A DNA stretch of 44,753 nucleotides, taken from a virus. Lineage: Duplodnaviria > Heunggongvirae > Uroviricota > Caudoviricetes. The position numbers and the translations under genes were made by a program. Under the pieces are notes generated by a model that was not told the origin of the DNA, ran no database searches, and saw only the letters and a list, made by a program, of their open reading frames with translations. How positions within the stretch are numbered: the stretch's first letter is position 1; every line of letters starts with the position of its first letter. The DNA lies in IMG/VR virus record IMGVR_UViG_2917860307_000001, positions 1 through 44,753 of that record, one strand, 5' to 3'. Positions 7,661 through 31,542 of the stretch are shown piece by piece.

Positions 7661-7889
7661 TCCGTTGATCCTCAATATTTGCCGTTTGCTTCAGCGTAAA
7701 AAAACATCAATTCCTACAGTTGGGCAGTGGTACACCACGCCTGCAGGGCATGTTCTACGTGTTAGCCTGGTTGACCGTGAATGTCAGAAGGTGATTTGTG
7801 AACCGCTGGGCCGTAATTACCGAGTCAGTATGCCGCTTATAGCCTTTTGCTCCGGAAAAAACATGAAGCATCTCGGAGGTGCAGCATGA
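7653..7889 (+). CDS. Hypothetical protein
   Basis: 78-aa ORF in the rightward early operon. Confidence 0.3.
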   Translation: MLNPLILNICRLLQRKKTSIPTVGQWYTTPAGHVLRVSLVDRECQKVICEPLGRNYRVSMPLIAFCSGKNMKHLGGAA

Positions 7890-8704
7890 GTATGGAGCTG
7901 ATGGTTAAAGCGATGAAAATTCGAGTGGGTAATCCATTGCGAAAACTGGTTCTGATCAAGCTGGCTGATAATGCCAGCGATCAGGGTGAGTGCTGGCCCA
8001 GCTACCAGCATATTGCTGACCAGTGCGAGATTAGCAAACGTTCTGTGATGAATCATATTGCGGCCCTTTGTGAGTCCGGGCTGGTAAAAAAAGTCACCCG
8101 GAAAGGTGAAAAAGGTAACTCAAGTAATATCTATCTCCTTCATCTGGATGGTGCAGGAGATTCACTAGGGGGTAGTGCAAATAATTCACTATCTGGTGCA
8201 GCAAATTCACCAGGTAGTGCAGGAGTTGCACCAGGGGGTAGTGCAGGAGATTCACCCAGAACCAGTCACTCTTTTGAACCAGTCAAAGAACCAGTCAATG
8301 AACCAATAGCTGTTGGTGAATCTGCTGATGAGTCTGTGCGGGTTCGTTCAAACCGACCGGAATACTCTCCGGAGTTTGAACAGGCATGGCTGGCATATCC
8401 CAAACGTGCTGGTGGCAATTCAAAATCTGCAGCCTTCAAAGCCTGGAAAGCCCGTTTGAATGAGGGGGTAAACCCCGAAACCATGCTGGAAGGTGTGAAA
8501 CGCTACGCGGGCTGGATATCTGCGATGGGTAACAGCGGCACACAATTTGTTAAACAGGCTGTCACGTTCTTTGGTCCGGATCGTCATTTCGAAGAATCCT
8601 GGGAAGTTCCTGCGGTATCGGCAGCCAGATGCGAAGACCCGTACTTCAAAGCCAGTTACAACAATGTGGACTACAGCCAGATCCCGGCAGGATTCAGGGG
8701 GTGA
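7886..8704 (+). CDS. Phage replication initiation protein (N-terminal HTH, Gly/Ser-rich linker)
   Basis: Start at MSMELMVKAMK (ATG 7886, GGAGGTG RBS); N-terminal helix-turn-helix resembling phage replication proteins; imperfect DNA repeats encode the GS linker. Confidence 0.6.
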   Translation: MSMELMVKAMKIRVGNPLRKLVLIKLADNASDQGECWPSYQHIADQCEISKRSVMNHIAALCESGLVKKVTRKGEKGNSSNIYLLHLDGAGDSLGGSANNSLSGAANSPGSAGVAPGGSAGDSPRTSHSFEPVKEPVNEPIAVGESADESVRVRSNRPEYSPEFEQAWLAYPKRAGGNSKSAAFKAWKARLNEGVNPETMLEGVKRYAGWISAMGNSGTQFVKQAVTFFGPDRHFEESWEVPAVSAARCEDPYFKASYNNVDYSQIPAGFRG

Positions 8705-8706
8705 GC

Positions 8707-9192
8707 ATGAGCCTGATGAGTGAGATTCAAAAATTCATTGAAAGCAATCCTGGATGTACGACCGGTGATATTGCGAATGCGTTTGCATACTTTCCACGTC
8801 CCCGTGTACTGAATACGACCCGTAAGTTACGCCAGTGCAGACGTGTCGCTTATCGCAGTGAAGGCAAAACACACAGGCATTTTTCTCGCAAGGCTGTGTT
8901 GCCACCTGAGCCGGTGCTGAAGCATATGAGTGTGGCCAGTAAAAGCTACGTCGGCACTAATGATCAGCGGGTGATTTTGCGCCTGATTCAGCAGGCAGAA
9001 GATCTGGAGTCCAGAGGTTTATTCCGTCGTGCTGCAACGGTGTGGATGGAGGCATTCCGTGAAAGCCACTCCCAGTCAGAACGAAACAATTTTCTGGCGC
9101 GCGTGAGCGGTGCTTACGGAAAAGCAGCAAGCGCGCTGTATCGGGTGATGAGTGGTATCTGTCAGGGAATTACGTGGGGGCTTAATGAGTAA
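8707..9192 (+). CDS. PerC-family-like regulator / hypothetical protein
   Basis: Start ATG 8707; C-terminal motif LESRGLFRRAATVWMEAFRESHSQSERNNF resembles PerC-like activators. Confidence 0.4.
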   Translation: MSLMSEIQKFIESNPGCTTGDIANAFAYFPRPRVLNTTRKLRQCRRVAYRSEGKTHRHFSRKAVLPPEPVLKHMSVASKSYVGTNDQRVILRLIQQAEDLESRGLFRRAATVWMEAFRESHSQSERNNFLARVSGAYGKAASALYRVMSGICQGITWGLNE

Positions 9193-9838
9193 TAAATATT
9201 GCCAGGCGCTGGTGGAGCTGCGAAACAAACCAGCCCATGAACTGAAGGAAGTGGGCGATCAGTGGCGCACGCCGGACAACATTTTCTGGGGAATTAACAC
9301 CCTGTTTGGCCCGTTTGTTCTGGATCTGTTCACTGACGGTGATAACGCCAAATGTGCCGCGTATTACACGGCGGAAGACAACGCGCTGGCGCATGACTGG
9401 TCAGAACGTCTTGCGGAGCTTAAAGGTGCTGCCTTTGGTAATCCCCCATACAGCCGCGCCAGTCAGCATGAGGGGCAATACATCACCGGCATGCGTTACA
9501 TCATGAAACATGCCAGTGCCATGCGTGATAAGGGCGGGCGCTATGTTTTCCTGATCAAAGCTGCCACCAGCGAAGTGTGGTGGCCGGAAGACGCAGACCA
9601 TATTGCTTTTATTCGCGGGCGTATTGGTTTTGAACTGCCTGCCTGGTTTATCCCGAAGGATGAGAAGCAGGTGCCGACAGGCGCTTTCTTCGCTGGTGCT
9701 ATTGCTGTTTTCGACAAGACCTGGAAGGGAGCGGCAATCAGCTACATCGGGCGCGATGAACTTGAGGCATGTGGTGAGGCCTTTCTGGCGCAGGTTCGCC
9801 AGCAGGCTGAAAAACTGGTCAGGGAGATGGCGGCATGA
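9185..9838 (+). CDS. Phage Dam-like DNA N6-adenine methyltransferase
   Basis: Start MSNKYCQ (ATG 9185); NPPY catalytic motif (AAFGNPPYSR). Confidence 0.7.
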   Translation: MSNKYCQALVELRNKPAHELKEVGDQWRTPDNIFWGINTLFGPFVLDLFTDGDNAKCAAYYTAEDNALAHDWSERLAELKGAAFGNPPYSRASQHEGQYITGMRYIMKHASAMRDKGGRYVFLIKAATSEVWWPEDADHIAFIRGRIGFELPAWFIPKDEKQVPTGAFFAGAIAVFDKTWKGAAISYIGRDELEACGEAFLAQVRQQAEKLVREMAA

Positions 9839-10161
9839 CGACGTTAACTCAATGCCAGCAGCAGGTGCTGGATATGCTGATTTCTTACCAGAAAGAGCGT
9901 GGCTTTCCGCCAACCAATCAGGAGGTGGCAACCATGCTGGGATACCGTTCAGTGAATGCAGCGGTAGAGCATCTTCGCGCACTGGAGAAAAAAGGCGTCA
10001 TCACGATAAAGCGTGGCGTGGCCCGGGGGATAACGCTTCATACCGCGGTGAAGGACGACGACAGCGAGGCGGTCGGGATTATCCGCGCACTGCTTGCCGG
10101 TGAGGAAAACGCAAGGCTGCGTGCAACCCACTGGTTACATGAGAGGGGCCTGAAAGTATGA
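9835..10161 (+). CDS. LexA N-terminal DNA-binding-domain protein (no peptidase domain)
   Basis: 108 aa; QQVLDMLISYQKERGFPPTNQEVATMLGYRSVNAAVEHLRALEKKGVITI closely parallels the LexA N-terminal domain (recalled from memory). Confidence 0.6.
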   Translation: MTTLTQCQQQVLDMLISYQKERGFPPTNQEVATMLGYRSVNAAVEHLRALEKKGVITIKRGVARGITLHTAVKDDDSEAVGIIRALLAGEENARLRATHWLHERGLKV

Positions 10162-10547
10162 AGCTGATCCTGCCTTTTCCGCCCAGCGTGAACACGTACT
10201 GGCGACACCCCAACAAAGGGGCGTTTGCTGGTAAGAGTCTGATAAGCGCAGCGGGGCGCAAATTCCAGAGCGCGGCGTGCGCAGCAATAGTTGAGCAGTT
10301 ACGTCGTCTGCCGAAACCAACGTCGGCACCTGCTTCAGTGGAGATCGTGTTGTTTCCTCCGGATAACCGGATCCGCGATCTGGACAACTATAACAAGGCG
10401 ATGTTTGACGCCCTGACCCACGCGGGTGTGTGGGAAGACGACAGTCAGGTGAAAAGAATGCTGGTTGAGTGGGGACCGGTTATCCCGGGAGGGAAGGTCG
10501 AGATCACTATCAGTAAGTACGAGAAAACGGCGGGTGCAGCCGCCTGA
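10158..10547 (+). CDS. rusA: Holliday junction resolvase RusA
   Basis: 129 aa; typical RusA sequence (LPFPPSVNTYW...D.DNY.KA..DAL). Confidence 0.8.
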   Translation: MKLILPFPPSVNTYWRHPNKGAFAGKSLISAAGRKFQSAACAAIVEQLRRLPKPTSAPASVEIVLFPPDNRIRDLDNYNKAMFDALTHAGVWEDDSQVKRMLVEWGPVIPGGKVEITISKYEKTAGAAA

Positions 10548-10566
10548 TTAAGAGGAGAAACGAAGT

Positions 10567-11376
10567 ATGAATAATCTGATGGTCATTGATGGTATTGAAG
10601 TTCGTCGTGATGCTTATGGGCGTTACAGCCTGAACGATCTGCACAGGGCAGCCGGGGGAGAACAAAAAAACCGCCCGAAATACTGGCTCTCCAATAAGCA
10701 AACCTGTGAATTGATTGAACAACTTTTCACCGAGGGTGGAATTCCGCCTCTGGAACAAAATCAACCAGTTAGCGTCATTAATGGCGGAAATAACCAGGGG
10801 ACGTATGTCTGCAAAGAACTGGTGTATGCCTATGCAATGTGGATCAGCCCGTCATTCCATCTGAAGGTGATCCGTACTTTCGATATGGTAACCAGCGCAC
10901 CGGAAAAATTATCCGGGCAGGCTGCTGACAAGATGCAGGCTGGAGTGATTCTGCTGGACTTTATGCGCCGGGAGTTAAACCTGTCTAACTCTTCAGTGCT
11001 TGGTGCCTGTCAGAAACTCCAGGAGGCTGTTGGCTTACCGAATCTGGCACCGCGCTATGCCATTGATGCTCCTGCTGATGCACACGATGGCTCAAGTCGC
11101 CCGACACTGTCACTGAGTGCACTGCTGAAACAGTATGGTATCCGCCTGACGGCTAATCAGGCATATCACCAGATGGTGAAGCTGGGGATCGTCGAGCAGC
11201 GCGAACGATACAGCCGTACCGCGATTAACAACATCAAAAAATTCTGGTTGCTGACAGCGAAAGGCTGCATGTTCGGCAAGAACATCACCAGTCCCGCCAA
11301 TCCGCGCGAGACGCAGCCGCATTTCTTCGAATCCCGATTCCCTGAGCTGTTAAAGCTGCTCGATACCGTTCATTGA
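10567..11376 (+). CDS. KilA-N domain protein
   Basis: N-terminal KilA-N pattern (VIDGIEVRRDAYGRYSLNDL...AMWISPSFHLKV). Confidence 0.6.
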   Translation: MNNLMVIDGIEVRRDAYGRYSLNDLHRAAGGEQKNRPKYWLSNKQTCELIEQLFTEGGIPPLEQNQPVSVINGGNNQGTYVCKELVYAYAMWISPSFHLKVIRTFDMVTSAPEKLSGQAADKMQAGVILLDFMRRELNLSNSSVLGACQKLQEAVGLPNLAPRYAIDAPADAHDGSSRPTLSLSALLKQYGIRLTANQAYHQMVKLGIVEQRERYSRTAINNIKKFWLLTAKGCMFGKNITSPANPRETQPHFFESRFPELLKLLDTVH

Positions 11377-11377
11377 G

Positions 11378-12373
11378 GTGACCGTGAGAGCACTACTGAC
11401 CCCTGAAATTGCCCCGCGTATGGGGATCGTATTGTTCAGGCCAGGTTCAGAGCTGATGCCCCTGTTTATGCAGGGGCGTGTCCTGCTGGAGCCTGAGCCG
11501 GAACGTTATTCATCTTTCGCCAGTGGTGCCGTTCCGGCGGCATCACAACCGCTGGCGGATGATCCTGCCGTTCGGGCCGTGTTCCGCAATGAGGCAGTGA
11601 TCCGTCGTGCTGGTGGCGTGGAATGTCTTGAAAGCTGGTTACTTCGTGAAAAAGGCTGCCAATGGCCTCATTCCGACTGGCACAGCGAGAACATGACCAC
11701 AATGCGACACGCTCCGGGCGCAATCCGTCTGTGCTGGCACTGCGATAACCAGCTGCGCGATCAGTTCACGGAACGGCTGGAATCAATGGCAACGGATAAC
11801 TGTGCCCGCTGGGTGTTGTCTGTAGTCCGTCGGGATCTCGGTTTTGATGATAACCATGCCGTGACAATGCCGGAACTGTGCTGGTGGCTGATTCGTAATG
11901 ACCTGGCGGATGCCTTACCTGAAAGCGCAGCCCGTAAGGCGCTGAGATTACCGAAACCTGCTGTGCCGTCTGTCACCCGGGAAAGTGACCTTGTGCCTTC
12001 GGTTCCTGCCACCAGCATCATCCAGGATAAAGCGAAAAATGTGCTGGCGCTGAAAGTGGATCCGGAGTCGCCGGAGTCTTTTATGTTACGCCCAAAACGC
12101 CGCCGCTGGGTTAATGAAAAGTACACGCGCTGGGTTAAGACACAGCCGTGTGCATGTTGTGGAAAGCCTGCTGATGATCCCCACCACCTGATAGGCCACG
12201 GTCAGGGTGGAATGGGTACAAAAGCGCATGACCTCTTTGTGTTGCCTTTGTGCAGAAAGCATCACGACGAGCTGCATGCGGATACCGTGGCATTTGAAGA
12301 GAAGTATGGCTCTCAGCTGGAGCTGATATTTCGTTTTATCGATCGTGCGCTGGCAATTGGCGTATTGGCGTAA
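11378..12373 (+). CDS. DUF968 domain protein
   Basis: GTG start; C-terminal Cys/His cluster PCACCGKPADDPHHLIGHG...LPLCRKHHDELH typical of DUF968 nin-region proteins. Confidence 0.6.
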   Translation: MTVRALLTPEIAPRMGIVLFRPGSELMPLFMQGRVLLEPEPERYSSFASGAVPAASQPLADDPAVRAVFRNEAVIRRAGGVECLESWLLREKGCQWPHSDWHSENMTTMRHAPGAIRLCWHCDNQLRDQFTERLESMATDNCARWVLSVVRRDLGFDDNHAVTMPELCWWLIRNDLADALPESAARKALRLPKPAVPSVTRESDLVPSVPATSIIQDKAKNVLALKVDPESPESFMLRPKRRRWVNEKYTRWVKTQPCACCGKPADDPHHLIGHGQGGMGTKAHDLFVLPLCRKHHDELHADTVAFEEKYGSQLELIFRFIDRALAIGVLA

Positions 12374-12386
12374 GTGGAGAACGAGC

Positions 12387-12941
12387 ATGAACCTTGAAGC
12401 CTTACCAAAATATTACTCCCCAAAATCTCCAAAATTGAGCGATGACGCACCGGCGACAGGCTCAGGTGGTTTAACGATTACGGATGTGATGGCTGCGCAG
12501 GGGATGGTGCAGTCGAAAGCACCGCTTGGGTTTGCCTTATTCCTGGCAAAAGTTGGTGTTCAGGATCCTCAATTTGCGATTGAAGGTCTGCTCAATTACG
12601 CGATGGCACTGGATAACCCGACATTGAACAAATTGAGTGAAGAAACCCGGTTACAGATCATCCCTTACCTTGTGAATTTTGCCTTTGCTGATTATTCCAG
12701 GTCTGCGGCAAGTAAGGCTCGCTGTGAGCATTGTGCTGGTACTGGATTTCATAATGTATTGCGCGAAGTGGTGAAACACTCCAGAAGCGGGGAATCTGTT
12801 ATCAAGGAAGAGTGGGTGAAGGAACTATGTCAGCATTGCCATGGTAAGGGAGAAGTCAGCACAGCGTGCAGAGGGTGTAAGGGTAAAGGTATTGTCCTGG
12901 ATGAAAAAAAGAACCCGGCTTCATGGTGTGCCTGTTTATAA
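12387..12941 (+). CDS. Antitermination protein Q (as read, terminates early; see downstream +1-frame fragment)
   Basis: Start MNLEALPKYY (ATG 12387); three CxxCxGxG zinc-finger repeats; position upstream of PR'-like promoter and lysis genes. Confidence 0.6.
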   Translation: MNLEALPKYYSPKSPKLSDDAPATGSGGLTITDVMAAQGMVQSKAPLGFALFLAKVGVQDPQFAIEGLLNYAMALDNPTLNKLSEETRLQIIPYLVNFAFADYSRSAASKARCEHCAGTGFHNVLREVVKHSRSGESVIKEEWVKELCQHCHGKGEVSTACRGCKGKGIVLDEKKNPASWCACL

Positions 12942-13140
12942 GATTTGTGGGCGTTGCAATGGCAACCGGTTTAGCCGTTTACCAACCACACTGGCGCGGC
13001 ATCATGTCCAGAAACTGGTACCGGACCTGACGGATTATCAGTGGTACAAAGGATATGCAGACGTTATTAATAAACTGGTTACAAAGTGCTGGCAGGAAGA
13101 AGCGTATGCTGAATCGCAATTGAGAAAAGTGACAAGATAG
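12901..13140 (+). CDS. Probable C-terminal fragment of antiterminator Q in the +1 frame
   Basis: Overlapping ORF in +1 frame beginning at the A7 run (12904-12910); carries a fourth CxxCxG repeat (CGRCNGNR). Confidence 0.35.
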   Translation: MKKRTRLHGVPVYKICGRCNGNRFSRLPTTLARHHVQKLVPDLTDYQWYKGYADVINKLVTKCWQEEAYAESQLRKVTR

Positions 13141-13171
13141 ATAATTTTCGCCGAAGATGTCGACGTGATGC

Positions 13172-13200
13172 TTGCATTTTTCAAAAAATATGGATAAGAT
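13172..13200 (+). promoter_or_regulatory. Late promoter PR'-like
   Basis: -35 TTGCAT, 17-nt spacer, -10 TAAGAT directly downstream of Q and about 45 nt upstream of a terminator. Confidence 0.45.
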
Positions 13201-13242
13201 TTTCTCAACGATGGGCCTTGTATGTCTACCGTTGGTAAATGT

Positions 13243-13268
13243 CAAAAACCCGCTGCTGAGCGGTTTTT
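13243..13268 (+). terminator. tR'-like rho-independent terminator
   Basis: AACCCGCT-GCTG-AGCGGTT hairpin (one-base bulge) followed by T7. Confidence 0.55.
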
Positions 13269-13428
13269 TTGTGCCTGATGTCTCATGAAACTATGAAATG
13301 GATTGGTGCGTTAAACATTTTTTCTTATTATCTTTTAGATTTTGGAGAGATGGTTAACGTCTGTATTCCAGAAACTCGATGGTTATTTAATAAATTAGTT
13401 TCAATGATGCTTCTAGGTTATGACTGTA

Positions 13429-13827
13429 ATGAAAAAGGTATTAATAGCAGCGATAGGTTTTTGTTTAGTTGGTTGTGCAGGTATGAAATTACCTGAGTAT
13501 TCGCAAGTTAAAGCAAGTCCGTATTATACAGATTGCCGTGCGTTTGCCATGGATGTTTATAAAAATGATGGATACAGCAAAATTGCGAAAACTACTATCC
13601 TTAGCATGGATGATGTGAAGGCTAGATATATTGTGACAGGGTGTGTAGTTGCTATGGGGAAAAACACTGTAGAGGAAATCAAAGCTGATCTCTCTGCTAA
13701 AGGGAGTTCTTTTGGGCTTATCAGTGGAGCTTGTTCTAGTGTGGCATGTCGGGTTGATGTAGAGCAGCAAATGAACGCTTATGTACTTGGTAGTTATTAT
13801 GCTGCAAATAAAAAAATTCCCGGATAA
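13429..13827 (+). CDS. Lipoprotein (moron)
   Basis: Signal peptide with lipobox MKKVLIAAIGFCLVGCAG; markedly low-GC gene flanked by terminators; alternative start at 13420. Confidence 0.6.
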   Translation: MKKVLIAAIGFCLVGCAGMKLPEYSQVKASPYYTDCRAFAMDVYKNDGYSKIAKTTILSMDDVKARYIVTGCVVAMGKNTVEEIKADLSAKGSSFGLISGACSSVACRVDVEQQMNAYVLGSYYAANKKIPG

Positions 13828-13922
13828 AATGAAAGCAGAGTTTTAAGCAAACCTTGTTTTCGATTATATGTCGAAGATAAATGTTAGTAACGGCATAATA
13901 AGTAAATATATAGCTGTGATAG

Positions 13923-13948
13923 CAACCCGCCACTGAGCGGGTTTTTTG
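13923..13948 (+). terminator. Rho-independent terminator
   Basis: AACCCGC-CACTGA-GCGGGTT hairpin followed by T6; near-copy of the terminator at 13243. Confidence 0.55.
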
Positions 13949-14069
13949 TACCCGTAAACTTGGTGCAGTACAGTAAACACGCTGGTGGTCGTGAATACTG
14001 ACTTTTTATCTTGCTGGCTTTTTAGACAAGAGTTATTGGTATGTCATGTTAACCAGAAGGGAAAAAGAC

Positions 14070-14273
14070 ATGCTAAAACAGCAAGATATGACAGAAACCG
14101 CCGCCGCAGTCCTTCATTTCTTACCTGCTGACAAGTGGGTAACGCCACGCATGATGACGAGAACTACCGGAGTAAGCGAAGCCCGGTGCCAGTTAATACT
14201 GACTCAGTTAGTTCTGGCGGGTCTGGCGAAGGATAACGGCGGGTACGGGAATAAATTCAGACGCTGCCAGTAA
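14070..14273 (+). CDS. Small putative DNA-binding protein (winged-helix-like)
   Basis: Start MLKQQDMTE (ATG 14070, AAGGGA RBS); 67 aa. Confidence 0.35.
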   Translation: MLKQQDMTETAAAVLHFLPADKWVTPRMMTRTTGVSEARCQLILTQLVLAGLAKDNGGYGNKFRRCQ

Positions 14274-14423
14274 TGGCGGTTTCCTGCTGTGAAAATGGGC
14301 GGCTGGTGGGTGTTGGTAGCACGTGCCAGCCATTCGCTCATGCTTACTGGTCACAAGCGAACCACGGCCCACTGCTTTAGCGCAAAAGCAGAGTGAGCCT
14401 ACCAGAGTTACGCTTACTGATCC

Positions 14424-15476
14424 ATGAAAAATACTGTAAAAATAAACAGTGTTGATTTAATCAACGCTGATTGCCTGCATTTTATTCAGTCCCTGCCTGA
14501 TGATTCCATTGACCTGATTGTTACCGATCCGCCGTACTTCAAGGTGAAACCCAACGGCTGGGACAATCAGTGGAAAGGGGACGAAGATTACCTTAAGTGG
14601 CTGGACCACTGTCTGGCCCAGTTCTGGCGGGTGTTAAAACCTGCCGGAAGCCTTTACCTGTTCTGTGGGCATCGCCTGGCATCTGATATTGAGATCATGA
14701 TGCGTGAACGTTTCAACGTGCTTAACCATATCATCTGGGCGAAGCCGTCCGGACGTTGGAATGGGTGTAATAAAGAAAGTCTGCGCGCATATTTTCCTGC
14801 CACAGAGCGCGTTCTGTTTGCTGAACATTACCAAGGGCCATATCGCGGCAAAAGTGACGGCTATGCGGCAAAAGAAAGGGAACTCAAACAGCACATAATG
14901 GCACCGCTGATATCGTATTTCAGGGATGCTCGTGCCGAACTGGGTATAACGGCAAAACAAATTGCCGAAGCCACAGGTAAGAAAAATATGGTTTCCCACT
15001 GGTTTGGTGCCAGTCAGTGGCAGTTGCCGAATGAGGCTGACTATCGGAAGTTACAGGCACTGTTTTCCCGTATAGCGGCAGAGAAGTTTCAGGAACAACA
15101 ACTGGAACAACCACACCACCAGCTGGTGGCATCTTATGATTCACTGAATCGCAAATATTCTGAATTGCTGGATGAGTTTAAATCTCTCCGGCGCTATTTC
15201 TCCGTATCAGTCTCCGTGCCTTATACCGATGTCTGGATGCATAAACCCGTTCAGTTCTACCCGGGTAAACATCCGTGTGAGAAACCGGCGGATATGCTCA
15301 GGCAAATAATCAATGCCAGTAGTCGACCTGGTGATCTGGTTGCTGATTTTTTTATGGGATCCGGTTCCACAATAAAAGCAGCAATGGCGCTGGGGCGTCG
15401 GGCCTTAGGTGTTGAGCTTGAGTCAGAGCGGTTTAACCAGACAGTGAAAGAGATAAACGAGCTGGTGGGGAAATAA
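14424..15476 (+). CDS. Orphan DNA methyltransferase (N6-adenine/N4-cytosine family, DPPY motif)
   Basis: 350 aa; motif IVTDPPYF near the N-terminus and a C-terminal AdoMet-binding-like region (DFFMGSGST). Confidence 0.8.
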
Positions 15477-15482
15477 TCTGGT

Positions 15483-15506
15483 GGCCACGTCAGGTGGCCT
15501 TTTTAT
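15483..15506 (+). terminator. Rho-independent terminator
   Basis: GGCCAC-GTCAG-GTGGCC hairpin followed by T5. Confidence 0.55.
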
Positions 15507-15543
15507 TTCCATTACACAGCACCCGCATCTGCGAGGTGGGGTT

Positions 15544-15758
15544 ATGAAATCCATGGATAAGTTAACAACGGGTGTCGCCTATGGCACCTCAGCAGGTAGT
15601 GCCGGGTACTGGTTTTACAGTTGCTCGATAAAGTCACGCCCTCACAGTGGGCGGCAATAGGTGTGCTGGGTAGTCTGGTGTTTGGCCTGCTGACGTATCT
15701 GACAAATCTTTATTTCAAGATTAAAGAAGACAAGCGTAAGGCTGCACGGGGAGAGTAA
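15544..15758 (+). pseudogene. Class II holin (S21-type pinholin), frame interrupted at a T4 run (15613-15616)
   Basis: ATG 15544 with GAGGTGG RBS gives [24 protein letters not shown] then a stop; a second frame continues [47 protein letters not shown]; together about 71 aa. Confidence 0.65.
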
Positions 15759-15762
15759 TTCA

Positions 15763-16077
15763 ATGACTCAAAACTATGAACTGATTGTGAAAGGGATCCG
15801 CAATTTTGATAATAAAGTTACGGTAACTTTAGCGTTACGGGACAAAAAACGCTTTGACGGTGAAATTTTTGACCTGGACATCTCGCTGGACCGTGTTGAA
15901 GGTGCCGCGCTGGAGTTTTATGAGGCAGCAGCCAGAAGGAGCATCAGACAGGTCTTCCTGGATGTTGCTGCTGGGTTATGTGAAGGGGACGAGCTGTTGC
16001 CAGAAACGCGCCCCTGTTCAGAGGCGCGGTATACCATAAAAATTAACAGTTCTGATAACTCGATTACGGGTTGTTAG
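15763..16077 (+). CDS. DUF1327 protein (YdfR-like)
   Basis: 104-aa ORF between holin and endolysin, as in Qin-type lysis cassettes (from memory). Confidence 0.55.
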   Translation: MTQNYELIVKGIRNFDNKVTVTLALRDKKRFDGEIFDLDISLDRVEGAALEFYEAAARRSIRQVFLDVAAGLCEGDELLPETRPCSEARYTIKINSSDNSITGC

Positions 16078-16132
16078 CTTTTTGCAGTTGGCTTTCCAGT
16101 ATCTTTCATTGGTAGCATCCTGATAAATATCC

Positions 16133-16666
16133 ATGAGCGCAAAAATCAAATACGGCCTGTCAGCTGCTGTTCTGGCGCTGATTGCTGCAGGCGCGTCTGC
16201 TCCTCAAATACTTGACCAGTTTCTGGATGAAAAAGAGGGTAACCACACTACGGCATACCGCGATGGTTCCGGTATATGGACCATCTGTCGTGGTGCCACA
16301 ATGGTGGATGGTAAGCCCGTCATACCGGGAATGAAGCTGTCGAAGGAAAAATGCGACCAGGTTAACGCTATTGAACGTGATAAGGCGCTGGCATGGGTGG
16401 AGCGCAATATTAAAGTACCACTGACCGAACCACAGAAAGCGGGTATAGCGTCATTTTGTCCCTATAACATTGGCCCCGGTAAGTGTTTCCCGTCGACGTT
16501 TTATAAGCGGCTGAATGCCGGTGATCGTAAGGGCGCATGCGAGGCGATTCGCTGGTGGATAAAAGATGGTGGGCGCGATTGCCGCATACGTTCAAATAAC
16601 TGCTATGGACAGGTTATTCGTCGTGACCAGGAAAGCGCATTAGCCTGTTGGGGGATAGATCAGTGA
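16133..16666 (+). CDS. SAR endolysin (phage lysozyme with N-terminal signal-anchor-release domain)
   Basis: 177 aa; N-terminal hydrophobic SAR segment [17 protein letters not shown] followed by a lysozyme-like domain with the EG-x-T-AYRD catalytic-region pattern. Confidence 0.8.
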
Positions 16667-17100
16667 GCAGAGTCGCCGCGATTATTTATGCTCTGGTTAT
16701 CTGCATCATCGTCTGCCTGTCATTGGCTGTTAATCATTACCGTGATAACGCCATCGCCTACAAAGAACAGCGCGATAAGGCCGCATCCATTATCGCTGAC
16801 ATGCAGAAACGTCAACGTAATGTAGCTGAACTCGATGCCAGATATACAAAGGAGCTTGCTGATGCTAACGCGACTATCGAAAGTCTCCGTGCTGATGTTT
16901 CTGCTGGGCGTAAGCGCCTGCAAGTCGCCGCCACCTGTGCAAAGTCAACGACCGGAGCCAGCGGCATGGGCGATGGAGAAAGCCCAAGACTTACAGCAGA
17001 TGCTGAACTCAATTATTACCGTCTCAGAAGTGGAATCGACAGGATAACCGCGCAGGTTAACTACCTGCAGGAGTACATCAGGACGCAATGCCTGAAATAA
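16663..17100 (+). CDS. i-spanin Rz
   Basis: Close similarity to lambda Rz N-terminus (recalled: [36 protein letters not shown]); GTG start at 16663 assumed. Confidence 0.75.
16862..17047 (+). CDS. o-spanin Rz1 (lipoprotein embedded in +1 frame of Rz)
   Basis: Embedded ORF with lipobox LLGVSAC and proline-rich mature region. Confidence 0.65.
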
Positions 17101-17131
17101 TTTTTTTGCAAATCACAAAGTCAATTTAATG

Positions 17132-17188
17132 AGCCTCGCGATGCGGGGCTTTTTGCAATAAATGCGTACCGCAACGCATGTTTTTTAC
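17132..17188 (+). terminator. Two tandem hairpin/T-run terminator candidates after the lysis cassette
   Basis: GCCTCGC-GAT-GCGGGGC + T5 and AATGCGT-ACCGCA-ACGCAT + T6. Confidence 0.4.
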
Positions 17189-17301
17189 ACCGAACCTGCC
17201 CCTTTGGAATGGGCCTTTGAGGATACCAGTTAGTGCTGGCGAGCCTCGGTGGGCTGGTTTCCTGTGCGGCAAAGGTTCATTTCAAAGAGTAGGTACACGC
17301 T

Positions 17302-17799
17302 ATGAAATCATTAACCCTCTTCAATCAACCAATTCGTATCGGTGAAGATGGCATGATCTGCCTCACTGATATGTGGAAAGCCAGTGGTAAAAGTGAATCT
17401 GAATCTCCGTACCACTACCTGCGAAACAAGCAGACCAAAGAGTTCTTAGCCGAGCTGGAGAAAAACCACGAATCTGTGGTTTTTACTGAGCGCGGTGTAC
17501 ACGGTGGAACATATGGCGGGAAGTTTGTTGCTTATGATTATGCAGCATGGCTAAACCCCGGATTTAAATATGCAGCCTATAAAGTCCTGGATGACTACTT
17601 CACCGGAGAACTTCAGCATCGCAACAGCTTAAGTGCGCAGCTCAATATGAAGTGTCATGAGTTTGATCAGAAAAAAGATATGGCGAGCTTCTGTGGACAA
17701 GGGCTGGCGGCATGGCGCTATACGAAGCCAGTGTTGGTCGCTGAGATTAACTCCCTGGCTAACCAGCTGCAGATAACGATCCCCGGGCTTCCGGGATGA
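17302..17799 (+). CDS. KilA-N domain protein (second copy)
   Basis: 165 aa; KilA-N-like pattern including WLNPGFKYAAYKVLDDY. Confidence 0.45.
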   Translation: MKSLTLFNQPIRIGEDGMICLTDMWKASGKSESESPYHYLRNKQTKEFLAELEKNHESVVFTERGVHGGTYGGKFVAYDYAAWLNPGFKYAAYKVLDDYFTGELQHRNSLSAQLNMKCHEFDQKKDMASFCGQGLAAWRYTKPVLVAEINSLANQLQITIPGLPG

Positions 17800-18053
17800 G
17801 TGATCGTGTCATTGAATGCGCCTCCAGAGCGGGGCGCGACTTCTCAGAGTTCATGAAAGGCGAGAAGGGCATGATGGAAGCATTGGCCTCGGTGGATGAG
17901 TTTGGCGAGCAGCTGCGCCTCAACGGCTGTGTCAATCATCACTTTGTTAGCTACATGATGCGGAACTCGATCATGCAGGCATTCATGGACATGGCAAAAG
18001 CCGAGAGGAAAGAAGAGCGCCGGCGTAAGCGAGCGGAAGCAAAAGCGAAGTAG
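17796..18053 (+). CDS. Hypothetical protein
   Basis: 85-aa ORF coupled to upstream gene; basic C-terminus. Confidence 0.35.
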   Translation: MSDRVIECASRAGRDFSEFMKGEKGMMEALASVDEFGEQLRLNGCVNHHFVSYMMRNSIMQAFMDMAKAERKEERRRKRAEAKAK

Positions 18054-18661
18054 CCATTACAAAGCCCATCTACTGGTGGGCTTGATAATGGCTTATACCC
18101 TACACGGGATAACTTAACTGATATCCCTTTTAACGGATAAAGGTATTCAAGCCTGACACATCATGCGCTGTATCGTCGCTGTATTCCTGCATTAACCATG
18201 ACCGTAGCCCGACGGGGAACTCCTTCTGCGCGAGTGTGCGGGAATAATCAAAAACGATGCACACCGGGTTTTTACCGCGCTAATGATTCGCGGGTTTGTC
18301 CCTCATGCTCGCCAGTCCTGTGCGGGGGTGGAAGAAACAGGACACTCACACAGATTCTTGTGGGTCGATGCTATTCCTTTCTGGATTATCCCGATGCCAT
18401 TCATGCAAGGGCTGTATCAGACGTTCGTCATGGCTGTCAGGCTGACGGGTCCTCCCGGTGGGGTGGCCTGCCACGGGGCGGGAGCGTCGCGGAAAAAGGC
18501 TAGTTTTTGAAATTTCATTCGTCATCACCACTACTGTAATGTATTGATATTACAGTGGTTTTATTTTTGTGGTGTCGATTTTGATTGTTTTTTGTTCATC
18601 GCTAACACCGTTTGCCTAAAGTTGTTCGCAAGATGCATGTTTAAAACATTCTGGAGCGGGT

Positions 18662-19156
18662 ATGGATCGAGAGTTAAAAAATCTGACGCTGAATATCAGT
18701 CAACTGGCGGCACTGTCAGGTGTACATCGCCAGACTGCTGCGGCAAGGCTGCAAAATCTACCCGTTGCAGGGGGGCATGAAAGCAACCTCAAGCTTTATC
18801 GGGTGGTTGATATTGTGTCGGCATTTCTGGCATTACCACCGCCGGTTGCAGAAGGCGAAATGGACGCGCATGAGCGCAAAGCCTGGTATCAGTCTGAACG
18901 TGAGCGTCTTAAGTTCGAACAGGAAACGGCACAACTCATTCCGGCCAGTGATGTCAGACGGGAGTTTGCCATCTGGGCAAAAGCGGTCGTGCAGGTGCTG
19001 GAGACATTACCGGATATTCTTGAACGTGACTGCGGTCTGCAGCCTGCCGCTGTGAGCCGTGTTCAGTCCATTATTGATGATCTGCGCGATCAGATAGCCC
19101 TGCGGGTGACTGAAGCAGGTGCGGATGATGAGGAGGAATTACAGCAGGAGGAGTAA
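18662..19156 (+). CDS. Terminase small subunit
   Basis: 164 aa, N-terminal HTH-like segment (LTLNISQLAALSGVHRQTAAARL), directly upstream of and overlapping terminase large subunit. Confidence 0.7.
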   Translation: MDRELKNLTLNISQLAALSGVHRQTAAARLQNLPVAGGHESNLKLYRVVDIVSAFLALPPPVAEGEMDAHERKAWYQSERERLKFEQETAQLIPASDVRREFAIWAKAVVQVLETLPDILERDCGLQPAAVSRVQSIIDDLRDQIALRVTEAGADDEEELQQEE

Positions 19157-21258
19157 TGCTGAATCAGGAAACCGCAAAGGCAGCACGAACCGATTCAGGT
19201 TATATCCTTCGCGCACCGAGACGAATGCGGGTTGCTGATGCCGTTGCTCAGTATATGCGGGTGCCCATGGGGGCAGGGAACTCAGTCCCGTGGGATCCGC
19301 TGGTGGCACCGTATGTTATTGAGCCGATGAACTGCCTGGCCTCGCGTGAATACGACGCAGTGATATTTGTTGGCCCGGCACGAACCGGCAAGACTATCGG
19401 CCTGATTGACGGCTGGGTGATTTACAACGTGATTTGCGATCCTGCTGATATGCTGATTATTCAGATGACGGAGGAAAAAGCCCGCGAACACTCCAAAAAA
19501 CGACTCGCCAGAACGTTTCGCGTCAGCCCGGAAGTGGTCAGTCGCCTGAGTCCGAACAAAAATGACAACAACGTTTATGACAGAACATTCCTTGCTGGTA
19601 ACTACCTGAAAATCGGCTGGCCGTCAGTCAATATCATGTCCTCATCAGATTATAAATGCGTCGCGCTGACGGATTATGACCGTTTTCCGGAAGATATTGA
19701 TGGCGAGGGGGATGCTTTCTCTCTTGCCTCAAAACGTACCACAACATTTATGTCCAGTGGTATGACGCTGGTGGAGAGTTCCCCCGGCAGGGATGTGAAG
19801 GATGTGAAATGGCGACGGACTTCACCGCATGAGGCTCCACCAACCACGGGGATACTATCGCTCTATAACCGTGGCGATCGCCGTCGCTGGTACTGGCCCT
19901 GTCCACACTGTGGTGAGTATTTTCAGCCCTGCGGCGATGTGGTTGCTGGTTTCCGTGATATTGCCGATCCCGTGCTGGCAAGTGAGGCGGCTTATATTCA
20001 GTGTCCTTCCTGTTCAGGACGGATTATGCCTGAACAAAAACGTGAGCTGAACGGACGTGGGGTCTGGTTGCGGGATGGTGAATCCATCAATGCGGATGGC
20101 AGTCGTTATGGTGATCCCCGACGCTCACGTATTGCGTCATTCTGGATGGAGGGTCCGGCAGCTGCTTACCAGACACTCTCGCAACTCGTTTACAAACTGC
20201 TTACTGCAGAACAGGAATACGAGACAACCGGAAGTGAAGAAACACTCAAGACGGTTATCAATACCGACTGGGGATTACCTTATCTTCCCCGCGCCAGCAT
20301 GGAGCAACGAAAAAGTGAACTGCTTGAGCAGCGGGCAGAGCCAGTTCCTTCCCGCAGTGTGCCGGATGGCGTTAATTTCCTTGTGGCGACAGTGGATGTG
20401 CAGGCGGGACGTCATCGCCGTTTTGTGGTTCAGGTAACGGGCTATGGCAGCCGTGGCGAACGCTGGATTATTGATCGTTACAACATCACGCAGTCATTGC
20501 GCGGTGACAGCGACGGGGAGAGCCAGCGAATTGATCCGGCCAGCTATCCGGAAGACTGGGATGTCCTGCTGACGGATGTTTTTCATAAAAGCTGGCCGCT
20601 GGCCTCCGATCCTTCTCAACAAATGCGACTGATGGCAATGGCGGTGGACTCCGGCGGTGAAGACGGGGTCACTGATAATGCCTATAAATTCTGGCGTCGT
20701 TGCCGTCGTGATGGCCTTGGTAAACGTATTTACCTGTTTAAGGGCGACAGCATCCGGCGCGCAAAACTGATCACCCGTACATTCCCTGATAACACCGGAC
20801 GAACGGGCCGACGGGCGCAGGCCGCAGGTGATGTGCCGCTCTGGCTTCTTCAGACGGATGCACTGAAAGACCGGGTGAATAACGCGTTATGGCGTGACTC
20901 GCCAGGTCCCGGCTATGTGCATTTCCCTGACTGGCTGGGGAGCTGGTTTTACGACGAACTGACGTATGAAGAGCGGAGCAGTGACGGGAAATGGAGTAAG
21001 CCGGGTCGCGGTGCCAACGAAGCTTTTGACCTGATGGTGTATGCCGAGGCTCTGGTCATTCTGCATGGATACGAAAAGATCCGCTGGCCGGATGCACCGG
21101 AGTGGGCGAGCCGGGAAACCTGGCTGGAGTGTGTCCCGGACAGTACCGAACCGTCACCCTCACCGGAACCGGTATCCACGCCTGTTAAAAAACAAAAACG
21201 GAAGAAAACAGTAACTGACGATGTTAACCCCTGGCTGACTTCCGGAGGATGGTTATGA
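19156..21258 (+). CDS. Terminase large subunit (GpA family)
   Basis: 700 aa; Walker A-like GPARTGKT; overall lambda gpA-like organisation. Confidence 0.9.
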   Translation: MLNQETAKAARTDSGYILRAPRRMRVADAVAQYMRVPMGAGNSVPWDPLVAPYVIEPMNCLASREYDAVIFVGPARTGKTIGLIDGWVIYNVICDPADMLIIQMTEEKAREHSKKRLARTFRVSPEVVSRLSPNKNDNNVYDRTFLAGNYLKIGWPSVNIMSSSDYKCVALTDYDRFPEDIDGEGDAFSLASKRTTTFMSSGMTLVESSPGRDVKDVKWRRTSPHEAPPTTGILSLYNRGDRRRWYWPCPHCGEYFQPCGDVVAGFRDIADPVLASEAAYIQCPSCSGRIMPEQKRELNGRGVWLRDGESINADGSRYGDPRRSRIASFWMEGPAAAYQTLSQLVYKLLTAEQEYETTGSEETLKTVINTDWGLPYLPRASMEQRKSELLEQRAEPVPSRSVPDGVNFLVATVDVQAGRHRRFVVQVTGYGSRGERWIIDRYNITQSLRGDSDGESQRIDPASYPEDWDVLLTDVFHKSWPLASDPSQQMRLMAMAVDSGGEDGVTDNAYKFWRRCRRDGLGKRIYLFKGDSIRRAKLITRTFPDNTGRTGRRAQAAGDVPLWLLQTDALKDRVNNALWRDSPGPGYVHFPDWLGSWFYDELTYEERSSDGKWSKPGRGANEAFDLMVYAEALVILHGYEKIRWPDAPEWASRETWLECVPDSTEPSPSPEPVSTPVKKQKRKKTVTDDVNPWLTSGGWL

Positions 21259-21467
21259 ACCAGAATGATATCGAAGCCATGATTCAGCGTTATACGGAAG
21301 CTGAAATGGCGGTGCTGGACGGAAAATCCGTCACCTTTAATGGTCAGCAGATGACCATGGAAAACTTATCTGAGATCCGGCAGGGACGGCAGGAGTGGGA
21401 GCGCCGCCTTGCGGCTCTGATTACACGACGACGGGGGCATCCCGGGTACCGGCTGGCGAGGTTCTGA
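21255..21467 (+). CDS. Head-tail joining protein (gpW-like)
   Basis: 70 aa; C-terminal RRRGHPGY resembles lambda W (recalled ...RRRGPAGFYV). Confidence 0.65.
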   Translation: MNQNDIEAMIQRYTEAEMAVLDGKSVTFNGQQMTMENLSEIRQGRQEWERRLAALITRRRGHPGYRLARF

Positions 21468-22975
21468 TGGCAATTCTTGATGATGTGATTGGCGTTTTTT
21501 CACCAGGATGGAAAGCGGCAAGGCTGCGTTCCCGGGCGGTGATCCAGGCTTATGAGGCCGTAAAAACTACGCGGACACACAAAGCCCGGCGGGAAAACCG
21601 AACTGCCGACCAGTTAAGCCAGTACGGGGCCGTGTCGTTACGTGAGCAGGCCCGTTACCTTGATAACAACCACGATCTGGTCATTGGTGTATTTGACAAG
21701 CTGGAAGAACGGGTGGTGGGGAAAAACGGGATTATTGTCGAGCCACATCCGGTATTACGCAATGGGGCCATTGCCCGTGATCTGGCAGCGGAGATACGCA
21801 CCCGATGGAGTGAATGGTCTGTCAGTCCGGAAGTTACCGGGCAGTTTACCCGTCCGATGCTGGAACGTCTGATGCTGCGTACCTGGCTGCGCGATGGTGA
21901 GGTGTTTGCCCAGATGGTTTCCGGGCGCATAAACAGCCTGACGCCTTCTGCCGGTGTTCATTTCTGGCTGGAGGCACTCGAGCCAGACTTTATTCCCATG
22001 ACCAGTGATGAGAGCAACAGGCTGAATCAGGGCGTGTTTGTTGATGACTGGGGGCGTCCCGAAAAATATCTGGTGTATAAAAGTCGTCCTGTATCCGGAC
22101 GGCAGATGGAAACCAAAGAAGTGGATGCAGAGCGAATGCTGCATCTTAAATTTGTTCGCCGTCTGCACCAGATGCGCGGGACGTCTTTATTGTCCGGTGT
22201 GCTGATCCGCCTCAGTGCCCTGAAAGAATATGAAGATTCTGAGCTGACTGCAGCAAGGATCGCTGCTGCTCTGGGGATGTACATCCGCAAAGGCGACGGA
22301 CAGAGCTATGAAACGGATGGTAATGACAGCAAGGAGAATGAACGCGAGCTTACCATTCAGCCAGGCATTATTTACGACGATCTGAAACCCGGCGAAGAAA
22401 TCGGAATGGTGAAGTCGGATCGCCCCAATCCTAACCTTGAAACTTTTCGTAATGGTCAGTTGCGTGCCGTGGCGGCGGGCAGTCGTCTGAGTTTTTCCAG
22501 TACAGCGCGCAACTATAACGGCACTTACAGCGCCCAGCGTCAGGAGCTGGTTGAATCCACTGATGGCTACCTGATCCTGCAGGACTGGTTTATTGGTGCC
22601 GTCACCCGCCCGATGTATCGTGCCTGGCTGAAACAGGCTGTGGCATCCGGTGTTATCAGGCTACCCCGCGATCTTGACCGTTCTTCACTGTATACCGCGG
22701 TGTATTCCGGACCGGTGATGCCGTGGATTGACCCTGTTAAGGAGGCTGAGGCCTGGAAAATTCAGATTCGTGGTGGAGCGGCGACAGAATCAGACTGGGT
22801 ACGTGCAGGTGGTCGTAATCCGGATGATGTCAAACGTCGGCGCAAGGCAGAAATTGATGAAAACCGCAAGCTGGATCTGGTATTTGATACCGATCCGGCC
22901 AGTGATAAAGGAGGCAGCAGTGCCGCAACGAAACGACAGGAGCCGCAGCACACCGACGACCAGTCCGAAGAATAA
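21467..22975 (+). CDS. Portal protein
   Basis: 502 aa starting MAILDDVIGVF; position after gpW and before prohead protease. Confidence 0.85.
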   Translation: MAILDDVIGVFSPGWKAARLRSRAVIQAYEAVKTTRTHKARRENRTADQLSQYGAVSLREQARYLDNNHDLVIGVFDKLEERVVGKNGIIVEPHPVLRNGAIARDLAAEIRTRWSEWSVSPEVTGQFTRPMLERLMLRTWLRDGEVFAQMVSGRINSLTPSAGVHFWLEALEPDFIPMTSDESNRLNQGVFVDDWGRPEKYLVYKSRPVSGRQMETKEVDAERMLHLKFVRRLHQMRGTSLLSGVLIRLSALKEYEDSELTAARIAAALGMYIRKGDGQSYETDGNDSKENERELTIQPGIIYDDLKPGEEIGMVKSDRPNPNLETFRNGQLRAVAAGSRLSFSSTARNYNGTYSAQRQELVESTDGYLILQDWFIGAVTRPMYRAWLKQAVASGVIRLPRDLDRSSLYTAVYSGPVMPWIDPVKEAEAWKIQIRGGAATESDWVRAGGRNPDDVKRRRKAEIDENRKLDLVFDTDPASDKGGSSAATKRQEPQHTDDQSEE

Positions 22976-22988
22976 TTCCTGGTTCAGG

Positions 22989-24947
22989 ATGCAGGCTGGT
23001 CACCAGAGTGACGCGGATATTTATATTTATGACGAGATTGGTTTCTGGGGTGTTACAGCGAAGCAGTTTATCAGTGATCTGAATGCACTGGGCGATATCA
23101 CCCACATTAATCTCCATATTAATTCACCGGGTGGCGATGTCTTTGAAGGCATCGCCATTTTTAATGCGCTGAAAACACATGGTGCGTCCATTACCGTTTA
23201 TGTCGACGGTGTGGCGGCGTCAATGGCGTCGGTCATTGCGATGGTGGGAAACCCGGTCATTATGCCGGAAAACACCTTCATGATGATTCATAAACCATTT
23301 GGCTTTACGGGCGGTGATGCGGAGGACATGCGCACCTATGCCGACCTGCTCGATAAGGTTGAGGCGGTTCTGTTACCCGCTTATGCACAGAAAACCGGGA
23401 AAACCACCGATGAAATTGCTGCCATGCTGGCGGATGAGACCTGGATGTCCGGTGCCGAATGTCTGGCACATGGATTTGCTGATCAGGTAACGCCAGCCGT
23501 TAAGGCAATGGCATGTATTCAGTCAAAACGTACAGAGGAATTTAAAAAGATGCCGGAATCCATTCGAAACATGATTACTCCGCCACGCAACAGTGCTCCA
23601 CGCGTACAGGATAATGAACCTGTAGCCTCCCGGACGCCAGTGCAGGCAGCAGCACCCGTGGTGGATGAAAACAGTATCCGTGCGCAGGTACTGGCAGAGC
23701 AAAAAGCGCGTGTAAACGGTATTAATGATTTGTTTGCCATGTTTGGCGGGCGTTATCAGACGCTGCAGGCTCAGTGTCTTGCCGATCCTGAATGTTCGCT
23801 GGAGCAGGCCCGCGAAAAGCTGTTGAACGAGATGGGGCGCGAGTCCACGCCATCCAATAAAAATACCCCGGCTCATATTTATGCCGGTAACGGTAATTTT
23901 GTGGGGGACGGGATCCGCCAGGCGCTGATGGCGCGTGCCGGATTTGAAAAAACCGAACGTGATAATGTCTACAACGGGATGACCCTGCGTGAATATGCTC
24001 GTATGTCACTGACTGAACGGGGGATTGGGGTTTCCAGTTATAACCCGATGCAGATGGTCGGTGCGGCGTTCACACACAGTACGTCTGACTTCGGTAATAT
24101 TCTGCTGGATGTTGCGAACAAAGCCATTCTGCAGGGCTGGGAAGATGCCCCTGAAACCTATGAACAGTGGACGCGGAAAGGTCAGTTGTCTGATTTTAAA
24201 ATTGCCCATCGTGTGGGTATGGGGGGCTTCAGTGCTCTGCGTCAGGTGCGTGAAGGGGCGGAATATAAATACGTCACCACCGGAGATAAACAGGCCACTA
24301 TTGCACTGGCGACCTATGGCGAGCTGTTCAGTATCACCCGTCAGGCCATTATCAATGATGATCTGAATATGCTGACCGATGTCCCGATGAAACTGGGCCG
24401 TGCGGCGAAATCCACTATTGCCGATCTGGTTTATGCCATTCTGACGTCTAACCCGAAAATCTCCACAGATAATGTAAGTCTGTTCGATAAAGCGAAACAT
24501 GCAAACGTACTGGAGAGCGCTGCAATGGACGTGGCATCGCTGGATAAAGCCCGCCAGTTGATGCGTGTTCAGAAAGAGGGGGAGCGTCATCTGAATATTC
24601 GTCCTGCGTTCGTACTGGTACCGACGGCGATGGAGTCTGTTGCTAACCAGGTCATTCGCTCCTCAAGTGTCAAGGGGGCTGACATTAACGCCGGTATTAT
24701 TAACCCGGTGAAAGATTTTGCGACCGTTATTGCAGAGCCTCGTCTTGATGATAACAGCCAGACCACTTTCTACCTGGCTGCGTCCAAAGGCTCCGATACG
24801 ATTGAAGTGGCTTATCTCAACGGTGTGGATACGCCATATATTGATCAGATGGAGGGCTTCAGTGTGGATGGCGTGACAACGAAAGTGCGTATTGACGCCG
24901 GTGTCGCGCCAGTTGATCACCGCGGTCTGGTGAAATGTACGGCGTAA
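22989..24947 (+). CDS. ClpP/S14-like prohead protease fused to major capsid protein
   Basis: N-terminal IYIYDEIG...INSPGGDV...MASVIAMVG protease pattern; C-terminal approx 350 aa capsid-like domain; start 22989 assumed. Confidence 0.7.
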   Translation: MQAGHQSDADIYIYDEIGFWGVTAKQFISDLNALGDITHINLHINSPGGDVFEGIAIFNALKTHGASITVYVDGVAASMASVIAMVGNPVIMPENTFMMIHKPFGFTGGDAEDMRTYADLLDKVEAVLLPAYAQKTGKTTDEIAAMLADETWMSGAECLAHGFADQVTPAVKAMACIQSKRTEEFKKMPESIRNMITPPRNSAPRVQDNEPVASRTPVQAAAPVVDENSIRAQVLAEQKARVNGINDLFAMFGGRYQTLQAQCLADPECSLEQAREKLLNEMGRESTPSNKNTPAHIYAGNGNFVGDGIRQALMARAGFEKTERDNVYNGMTLREYARMSLTERGIGVSSYNPMQMVGAAFTHSTSDFGNILLDVANKAILQGWEDAPETYEQWTRKGQLSDFKIAHRVGMGGFSALRQVREGAEYKYVTTGDKQATIALATYGELFSITRQAIINDDLNMLTDVPMKLGRAAKSTIADLVYAILTSNPKISTDNVSLFDKAKHANVLESAAMDVASLDKARQLMRVQKEGERHLNIRPAFVLVPTAMESVANQVIRSSSVKGADINAGIINPVKDFATVIAEPRLDDNSQTTFYLAASKGSDTIEVAYLNGVDTPYIDQMEGFSVDGVTTKVRIDAGVAPVDHRGLVKCTA

Positions 24948-24968
24948 ACGTCGCAGACAACAACTCTG

Positions 24969-24990
24969 ATGGCCCGTAAGGGCTTTTTTT
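24969..24990 (+). terminator. Rho-independent terminator after capsid gene
   Basis: GGCCC-GTAA-GGGC hairpin followed by T7. Confidence 0.5.
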
Positions 24991-25033
24991 GTACCTGAAA
25001 TCAGCCCCTGAACGGGGCTGTGCGGAGACAGTT

Positions 25034-25625: not shown

Positions 25626-25636
25626 AGAGGTGTGGG

Positions 25637-26625: not shown

Positions 26626-26635
26626 GGAGGTGGCA

Positions 26636-27379: not shown

Positions 27380-27399
27380 CAGGACGATACTCATCATTT

Positions 27400-27425
27400 G
27401 CCCCGGTTATCCGGGGCTTTTTTTG
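27400..27425 (+). terminator. Hairpin/T-run after major tail gene
   Basis: GCCCCGG-TTAT-CCGGGGC followed by T7. Confidence 0.5.
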
Positions 27426-27440
27426 CAGGTGGAGAACATG

Positions 27441-31533: not shown

Positions 31534-31542
31534 GAGGCTCTG

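Follow-up and report, generated by a model that had tools for sequence, protein, structure and literature searches.

The apparent disruption of the pinholin gene in the prophage analysed here is most likely not a real biological feature. In the window, by which we mean the whole 44,753-nt stretch of DNA that was analysed, an S21/EssD-type pinholin gene is split by one missing T in a T-run, and this run of four T residues (T4) is very probably an Ion Torrent homopolymer under-call of five (T5) that survived into a draft consensus, not a biological mutation. We base this reading on the Ion Torrent source of the sequence together with the known error mode of that platform, the presence of T5 in sister assemblies, the dominance of indels among the differences between assemblies, and the finding of T4 nowhere else. 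The locus is an ordinary essD/S21-type pinholin gene that heads a standard lambdoid lysis cassette (pinholin, YdfR, SAR endolysin, Rz/Rz1), and the real gene in the source strain, E2748, is probably intact and encodes an EssD-identical protein.

Results

One missing T splits the pinholin gene in the deposited sequence

The deposited sequence does contain a break in the holin gene (window 15544-15758). As described in an earlier reading made from the DNA letters alone (the sequence-only reading), an ATG at 15544-15546 opens a frame on the plus strand that ends after 38 codons at a TAG (15658-15660), and it is preceded by a strong ribosome-binding site, which we read as the Shine-Dalgarno-like GAGGTG at 15533-15538 (plus strand), 5 nt upstream of the ATG. 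This N-terminal holin fragment (15544-15660, plus strand) is composed of 24 native codons (15544-15615), which span the M1/M4 dual start and the predicted TMD1, followed by 14 out-of-frame codons and the TAG; the dual-start motif M-K-S-M is encoded by ATG AAA TCC ATG at 15544-15555. The frameshift site is the T4 homopolymer run at 15613-15616 (plus strand), which is T5 in every relative examined. In the shifted frame (15615-15758, plus strand), the C-terminal holin part begins with L25-Q-L-L-D-K-V, ends with ARGE and is closed by a TAA at 15756-15758; it comprises the predicted TMD2 and charged tail and matches EssD residues 25-71 at 100% identity (tblastn). The deviation of the window holin from its relatives is hence one missing T, and in place of an uninterrupted ORF of about 71 codons the window has T4 and a stop after 38 codons.

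Addition of one T restores a full pinholin, as had been proposed. The resulting 71-aa product is identical to E. coli K-12 EssD and scores 121 bits against PF04971 ('Bacteriophage P21 holin S', the class II holin family; curated cut-off 26 bits), covering profile positions 1-63. Taken separately, the N-terminal fragment reaches 31.3 bits (profile positions 1-22) and the C-terminal fragment 76.1 bits (positions 23-63), and the holin resemblance of the split frames is not due to chance. An exact protein look-up placed the repaired 71-aa protein on more than 1000 contigs, and the best E. coli matches at the DNA level bear the annotation 'essD: phage lysis protein EssD'. Judged by this identity, the gene is already known and, after repair, the same as EssD. 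The repaired protein is predicted to have a weakly hydrophobic TMD1, a hole-forming TMD2 and a charged C-terminus, based on its identity to EssD and its 86% identity to S21.

The sequence-only reading had also noted that the holin locus has no ORF of 60 aa or more, and indeed the longest ORFs there are of 59 aa (from a GTG at 15481) and 45 aa (from a TTG at 15621). The shorter one covers PF04971 positions 23-63, and the C-terminal fragment could in principle be translated alone as an unregulated, TMD1-less pinholin consisting of TMD2 only, and Park and colleagues reportedly found in 2006 that S21 without TMD1 is still lethal or functional. However, no Shine-Dalgarno sequence precedes the TTG, which sits inside the upstream frame, and the premise requires a real T4; we consider translation of such a product extremely improbable.

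Relatives of the pinholin gene carry T5

To the extent that relatives were compared, they carry the fifth T. Among E. coli complete genomes (n=5,426), all 40 of the matches listed span 302 nt against the 301-nt query, with a best identity of 99.7%, and the extra base in the aligned relatives is the fifth T. A span of 302 nt was likewise found in phages mEp460, PhiR40_1 and others, with mEp460 being aligned with T5. The run is T5 in 119/119 IMG/VR contigs that contain a downstream 36-mer of the window, and in 123/123 loci compared. A search of GTDB representative genomes, IMG/VR and JGI metagenomes with a T4 26-mer gave no match. Fragments of the broken holin, Q, 141-aa ORF and tape-measure genes were not on record among 15 billion proteins, in a look-up for which the Q and tape-measure queries took the start codons of the ORF list and not the likely annotated starts.

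The same data bear on the idea that the T-run is used for recoding, either through a -1 ribosomal or transcriptional slip at UUUU that would supply full pinholin at a low level, or as a reversible T4/T5 lysis switch. If tRNA-Phe in the P site slipped by -1 from UUU to GUU and UUA were decoded next, the exact wild-type peptide would result. Against this, the codons at the site are UGG UUU UAC and form no in-frame X XXY YYZ heptamer, and a run of four T residues is too short for transcriptional slippage to an appreciable degree. In all relatives the gene is one uninterrupted T5 ORF, where for a programmed -1 site a conserved split-gene arrangement would be expected, there is no polymorphism among the contigs and loci compared, with T4 unmatched in three public collections, and the other indels of the window (see below) are alike in character and lie in unrelated genes. 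Recoding or a switch is therefore very improbable; more generally, with no slippery heptamer, polymorphism or ribosome-binding site, we judge it very unlikely that programmed frameshifting, phase variation or a TMD2-only product is at work.

The window stems from an Ion Torrent draft of a non-coli Escherichia

Over positions 7384-22100 and 23595-44753, the window is 100% identical, without gaps, to GenBank PDIF01000060.1 (GCA_004745355.1), to which exact matches of the DusA, J, Rz, YdfR and DUF968 proteins of the window pointed. Window position p corresponds to position p + 48840 of that contig, which places the T-run at 64453-64456, and the contig annotation has no protein at the holin, Q, PerC and tape-measure regions. 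PDIF00000000 is the draft genome of strain E2748 of Escherichia cryptic clade II, assembled with MIRA and SPAdes from single-end Ion Torrent reads of 35-400 bp at 45x (PMC6639607). Homopolymer indels that result in frameshifts are a known weakness of Ion Torrent assemblies; these indels occur in tracts with a mean length of 5.5, affect adenine worst and are irreproducible between runs (PMC12046094).

The platform thus speaks against a genuine and recent T4, that is, against the view that the pinholin gene of the E2748 prophage lost one T by replication slippage. On the other side, the frameshift stands in the deposited 45x consensus, and homopolymers are natural slippage sites and mutational hot spots. 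Weighing these points with the assembly comparisons below, we regard a genuine loss as unlikely, and the under-call remains our preferred reading.

The prophage lies at dusA (43340-44377), with its integrase gene at 42154-43251 (minus strand). Over the dusA-pspG flank, the host DNA reaches only 92-93% identity to E. coli (5,426 genomes), indicating that the host is a non-coli Escherichia. For the representative genome of E. whittamii the flank identity is 93.4%, and for Escherichia sp. E1V33 it is 95.2%; published work places the strain in cryptic clade II, and for such a strain these identities are low. A search of GTDB genomes with dusA gave no match above about 95% nucleotide identity. The initial ~90 nt of the gene (43340 to about 43427) do not align with the dusA genes of other species of Escherichia.

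Sister and same-clone assemblies carry T5 and differ almost only by indels

The holin ORF is intact (T5) in three sister assemblies, VATP01000019.1, Logan SRR8835203 and Logan SRR12517566. Compared with window 14303-22100, VATP01000019.1 (GCA_005781125.1) showed no substitution and a single indel, T5 versus T4, over 7,799 bp, and Logan SRR8835203 gave the same result, no substitution and one indel (T5 versus T4), over window 15374-16866 (1.5 kb). Between VATP01000034.1 and window 10218-13973 (3.76 kb), we found one substitution and three indels (A6, G3, A6), with which Q (intact, 250 aa) and the 141-aa ORF are restored. Logan SRR6148327 differs from window 29722-41553 (11.8 kb) by no substitution and three indels, one of which removes the tape-measure frameshift at 29811; the remaining two disrupt genes of the Logan contig instead. 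This contig begins exactly at the A-run at 29721; SRR6148327 is the sole other record with this J protein and matches window 41534-44753 at 100% identity. Three pairwise comparisons of the host DNA beside dusA (10-13 kb each) revealed no substitutions and 2-3 indel events each.

Taken together, ~48 kb of pairwise comparison between same-clone assemblies contained ~13 single-base indel events and one substitution, a ratio that is the signature of platform noise and not of divergence. If T4 were genuine, the isolates behind VATP01 and SRR8835203 could represent a clonal sister in which T5 persisted, with the mutation arising in E2748. Nevertheless, an excess of indels that includes host genes is the reverse of the natural divergence ratio, the 29811 frameshift is contradicted by the SRR6148327 assembly, which has the same rare J gene, and the T4 allele was absent from the public collections searched, where all 119 IMG/VR contigs read T5. 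Whereas a genuine frameshift pseudogene would be reproduced in independent accurate data, otherwise identical assemblies here carry T5. The biological break implied by the sequence-only reading is consequently not upheld, as the draft is an Ion Torrent one and its sister and same-clone assemblies have T5 and differ almost only by homopolymer indels. That reading had named reads with T5 at this site as an observation that would speak against it, and the T5 of the sister and same-clone assemblies supplies this indirectly.

Outside the window, in the host aphA region, the GenBank and Logan assemblies, apparently of the same strain, differ by A7 versus A9 and T7 versus T6 (host-flank numbering 17229 and 17996, respectively), and aphA is split in the Logan contig and intact in GenBank. 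A mismatch-repair mutator lineage was also considered and was rejected because apparent same-clone assemblies, one of them assumed to derive from the same read set, disagree at homopolymers.

Further one-base indels are private to the window

The sequence-only reading had concluded that only the lysis timer appears broken. For the deposited text this is wrong, as it carries further private frameshifts in Q, in the tape-measure gene (twice), in a PerC-like gene and in the 141-aa ORF. By alignment to E. coli SC516, A1 and PEC41 and to phage mEp460, we called at least nine private single-base indels in the window, mostly A6 to A7, T6 to T7 and T5 to T4, each of them unique among the loci compared, and the genes flanking them show 98-100% protein identity to relatives.

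At 9102, a T is deleted from the PerC/yfdN-like gene (plus strand; GCG-CGTG versus GCGTCGTG in relatives); the T is present in 14 loci. The gene for antiterminator Q (ydfT-type; 12387-13140, plus strand) is split by A7 at 12904-12910 where relatives (19 loci) have A6. At 13261, G3 is reduced to G2 in an intergenic terminator-like hairpin, as seen against PEC41 and VATP01000034.1, and at 13804-13816 (plus strand), near the 3' end of the 141-aa hypothetical gene, A7 (first A at 13810) replaces the A6 found elsewhere. An intergenic T6 is extended to T7 at 27418. The tape-measure gene (28137-31204, plus strand) is split by a change from A6 to A7 at 29721 and by an extra A at 29811, and A3 is shortened to A2 at 32240, just past a stop codon. 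Between 18.6 and 31.3 kb of the window, comparison with PEC41 gave three indels and ~7 substitutions, of which at most two are private to the window. Together with a private indel at 41629 (see below), these make nine further indels, which are probably the same Ion Torrent noise as in the holin T-run.

A genuine T4 would stand beside other inactivating hits (in Q, the tape-measure gene and the PerC-like gene), and the prophage would be in decay or undergoing domestication. Multi-hit defective lambdoid prophages with several frameshifts are common and well documented, which is in favour of such a history. So is the observation that all ten A7/T7 runs shared by the window and its relatives are unchanged in the window, showing that the noise is not uniform, as is the indel at 41629, which was reproduced in two assemblies. 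This one-base deletion of a C (ATATG-CGTGG) is common to the GenBank and Logan SRR6148327 assemblies, and neither Logan SRR8835203 nor E. coli PEC41 has it. It reflects a systematic flow-space error or else a true difference, and its recurrence implies that some indels may be real or systematic.

With a real T4, the truncated product would keep TMD1 without the hole-forming TMD2 and would thus be null, and late expression would cause only slow, asynchronous lysis via spontaneous release of the SAR endolysin. This fits the behaviour of SAR endolysins, which without a holin lyse late and broadly (PMC9239132), and such a prophage would offer a natural example of a SAR lysis cassette without a holin, with decay or domestication only just beginning. 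Were Q also truly broken, the question of holin-less lysis would be moot. In sum, it is improbable that an environmental cryptic clade II Escherichia carries a prophage that has very recently lost its pinholin, Q and tape measure through homopolymer slippage, with SAR endolysin and spanins intact.

The pinholin gene heads a standard lysis cassette

In line with the sequence-only reading, the SAR endolysin and the spanins Rz and Rz1 are intact downstream of the holin. The gene order, with YdfR, a PF00959 lysozyme and a PF03245 Rz with embedded PF06085 Rz1 following the holin, is that of a lysis cassette. The intact ydfR gene (DUF1327; 15763-16077, plus strand) matches PF07041 with 132 bits, and its product is 98% identical to relatives. 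It is followed by the intact SAR-type endolysin gene (177 aa; 16133-16666, plus strand; PF00959, 87.5 bits), whose product matches the E. coli SC516 lysozyme at 100% identity. SAR endolysins are defined by an E-X8-D-X5-T triad and a weakly hydrophobic, Gly/Ala-rich N-terminal domain (PMC9239132), and we read both in the window protein, with Ala/Gly-rich residues 7-24 and the triad E35-X8-D44-X5-T50.

The Rz i-spanin gene (16663-17100, plus strand; PF03245) starts with a GTG that overlaps the endolysin stop. Inside it lies the Rz1 o-spanin ORF (16835-17047, plus strand; PF06085, 72.5 bits), with a likely start at the Met at 16862 and the lipobox LGVSAC. Rz is a mosaic: the 5' part is of the 155-aa Rz type found in SC516 and mEp460, the alignment with these two ends at a breakpoint near 16778, and over the full protein the identity to SC516 Rz is only 55%. 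The exact 145-aa Rz product was found in only two public assemblies.

Upstream, a pattern scan detected a terminator-like hairpin (GGCCACGTCAGGTGGCC then TTTTTATTT) at 15483-15508 (plus strand), which separates a DNA methyltransferase gene from the holin, lies 45 nt ahead of the ATG and may act as a terminator. The hairpin is strong and is accompanied by a T-run; late transcription would have to pass it, presumably by means of Q-modified RNA polymerase.

By analogy to phage 21, from which the pinholin/SAR lysis mechanism is known (PMC9239132), an intact gene would give S71/S68-type products (antiholin/holin) that accumulate in the inner membrane. TMD1 would then leave the membrane and TMD2 would oligomerise into small pinholes, which would depolarise the membrane; for a holin of this class the holes would be of nanometre size, and a drop in membrane potential would trigger it. 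Depolarisation would release and activate the membrane-tethered SAR endolysin, after which the spanins would disrupt the outer membrane.

Some further features of the prophage were noted. A two-gene module (window 17302-18053; a 165-aa KilA-N/ORF11CD3 protein and an 85-aa ORF) lies between the spanins and the terminase region, and in exactly this form the 165-aa protein has an extremely wide distribution (16,610 index blocks), occurring behind many different lysis cassettes. The tail-fibre gene (37719-40082) contains a direct repeat of 168 nt (38259-38426 and 38448-38615; 91% identity). The head/tail morphogenesis block (18557-31356) is ~99.9% identical to a prophage of the pig E. coli isolate PEC41 from Korea, which indicates very recent module sharing between E. 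coli and the cryptic clade II Escherichia from Hong Kong sediment.

Discussion

Our analysis cautions that single-base frameshifts at short homopolymers in drafts from indel-prone data (Ion Torrent, 454, unpolished long reads) do not equal pseudogenisation. Read without such a guard, the 44.7-kb window would suggest a prophage with five broken genes, and comparison of sister assemblies or of reads guards against false pseudogenes of this kind. Delta-bitscore or gene-degradation analyses that use these clade II genomes (PMC7716201) could carry the same noise. Even a real lesion would amount to no more than a routine null mutation, and the gene it hits is well understood.

The indels fit the known pattern of Ion Torrent artefacts, as the window and its sister assemblies show the same irreproducible one-base errors in A/T runs of 5-7; the indels at 9102 and 29811 differ from this pattern in that they lie outside runs of at least three identical bases.

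Alignment with the two closest known relatives, which the sequence-only reading had suggested as a check, agrees with its assignment of the gene. S21 of phage 21 (S71 antiholin/S68 holin) has 86% identity and 96% similarity to the repaired product over 71 residues, with ten substitutions. Both have the M-K-S-M dual start, and the window product is predicted to share the Gly/Ala/Ser-rich TMD1, TMD2 and the basic C-terminus, and both genes lie upstream of a SAR endolysin and Rz/Rz1. EssD, the holin of the DLP12 prophage in E. coli K-12, is the same as the repaired product at every residue, and the presence of ydfR 3' of the window holin is the arrangement of the Qin-type loci compared. What distinguishes the window from EssD is that its frame is instead split at codon 24/25, with T4 where the others have T5.
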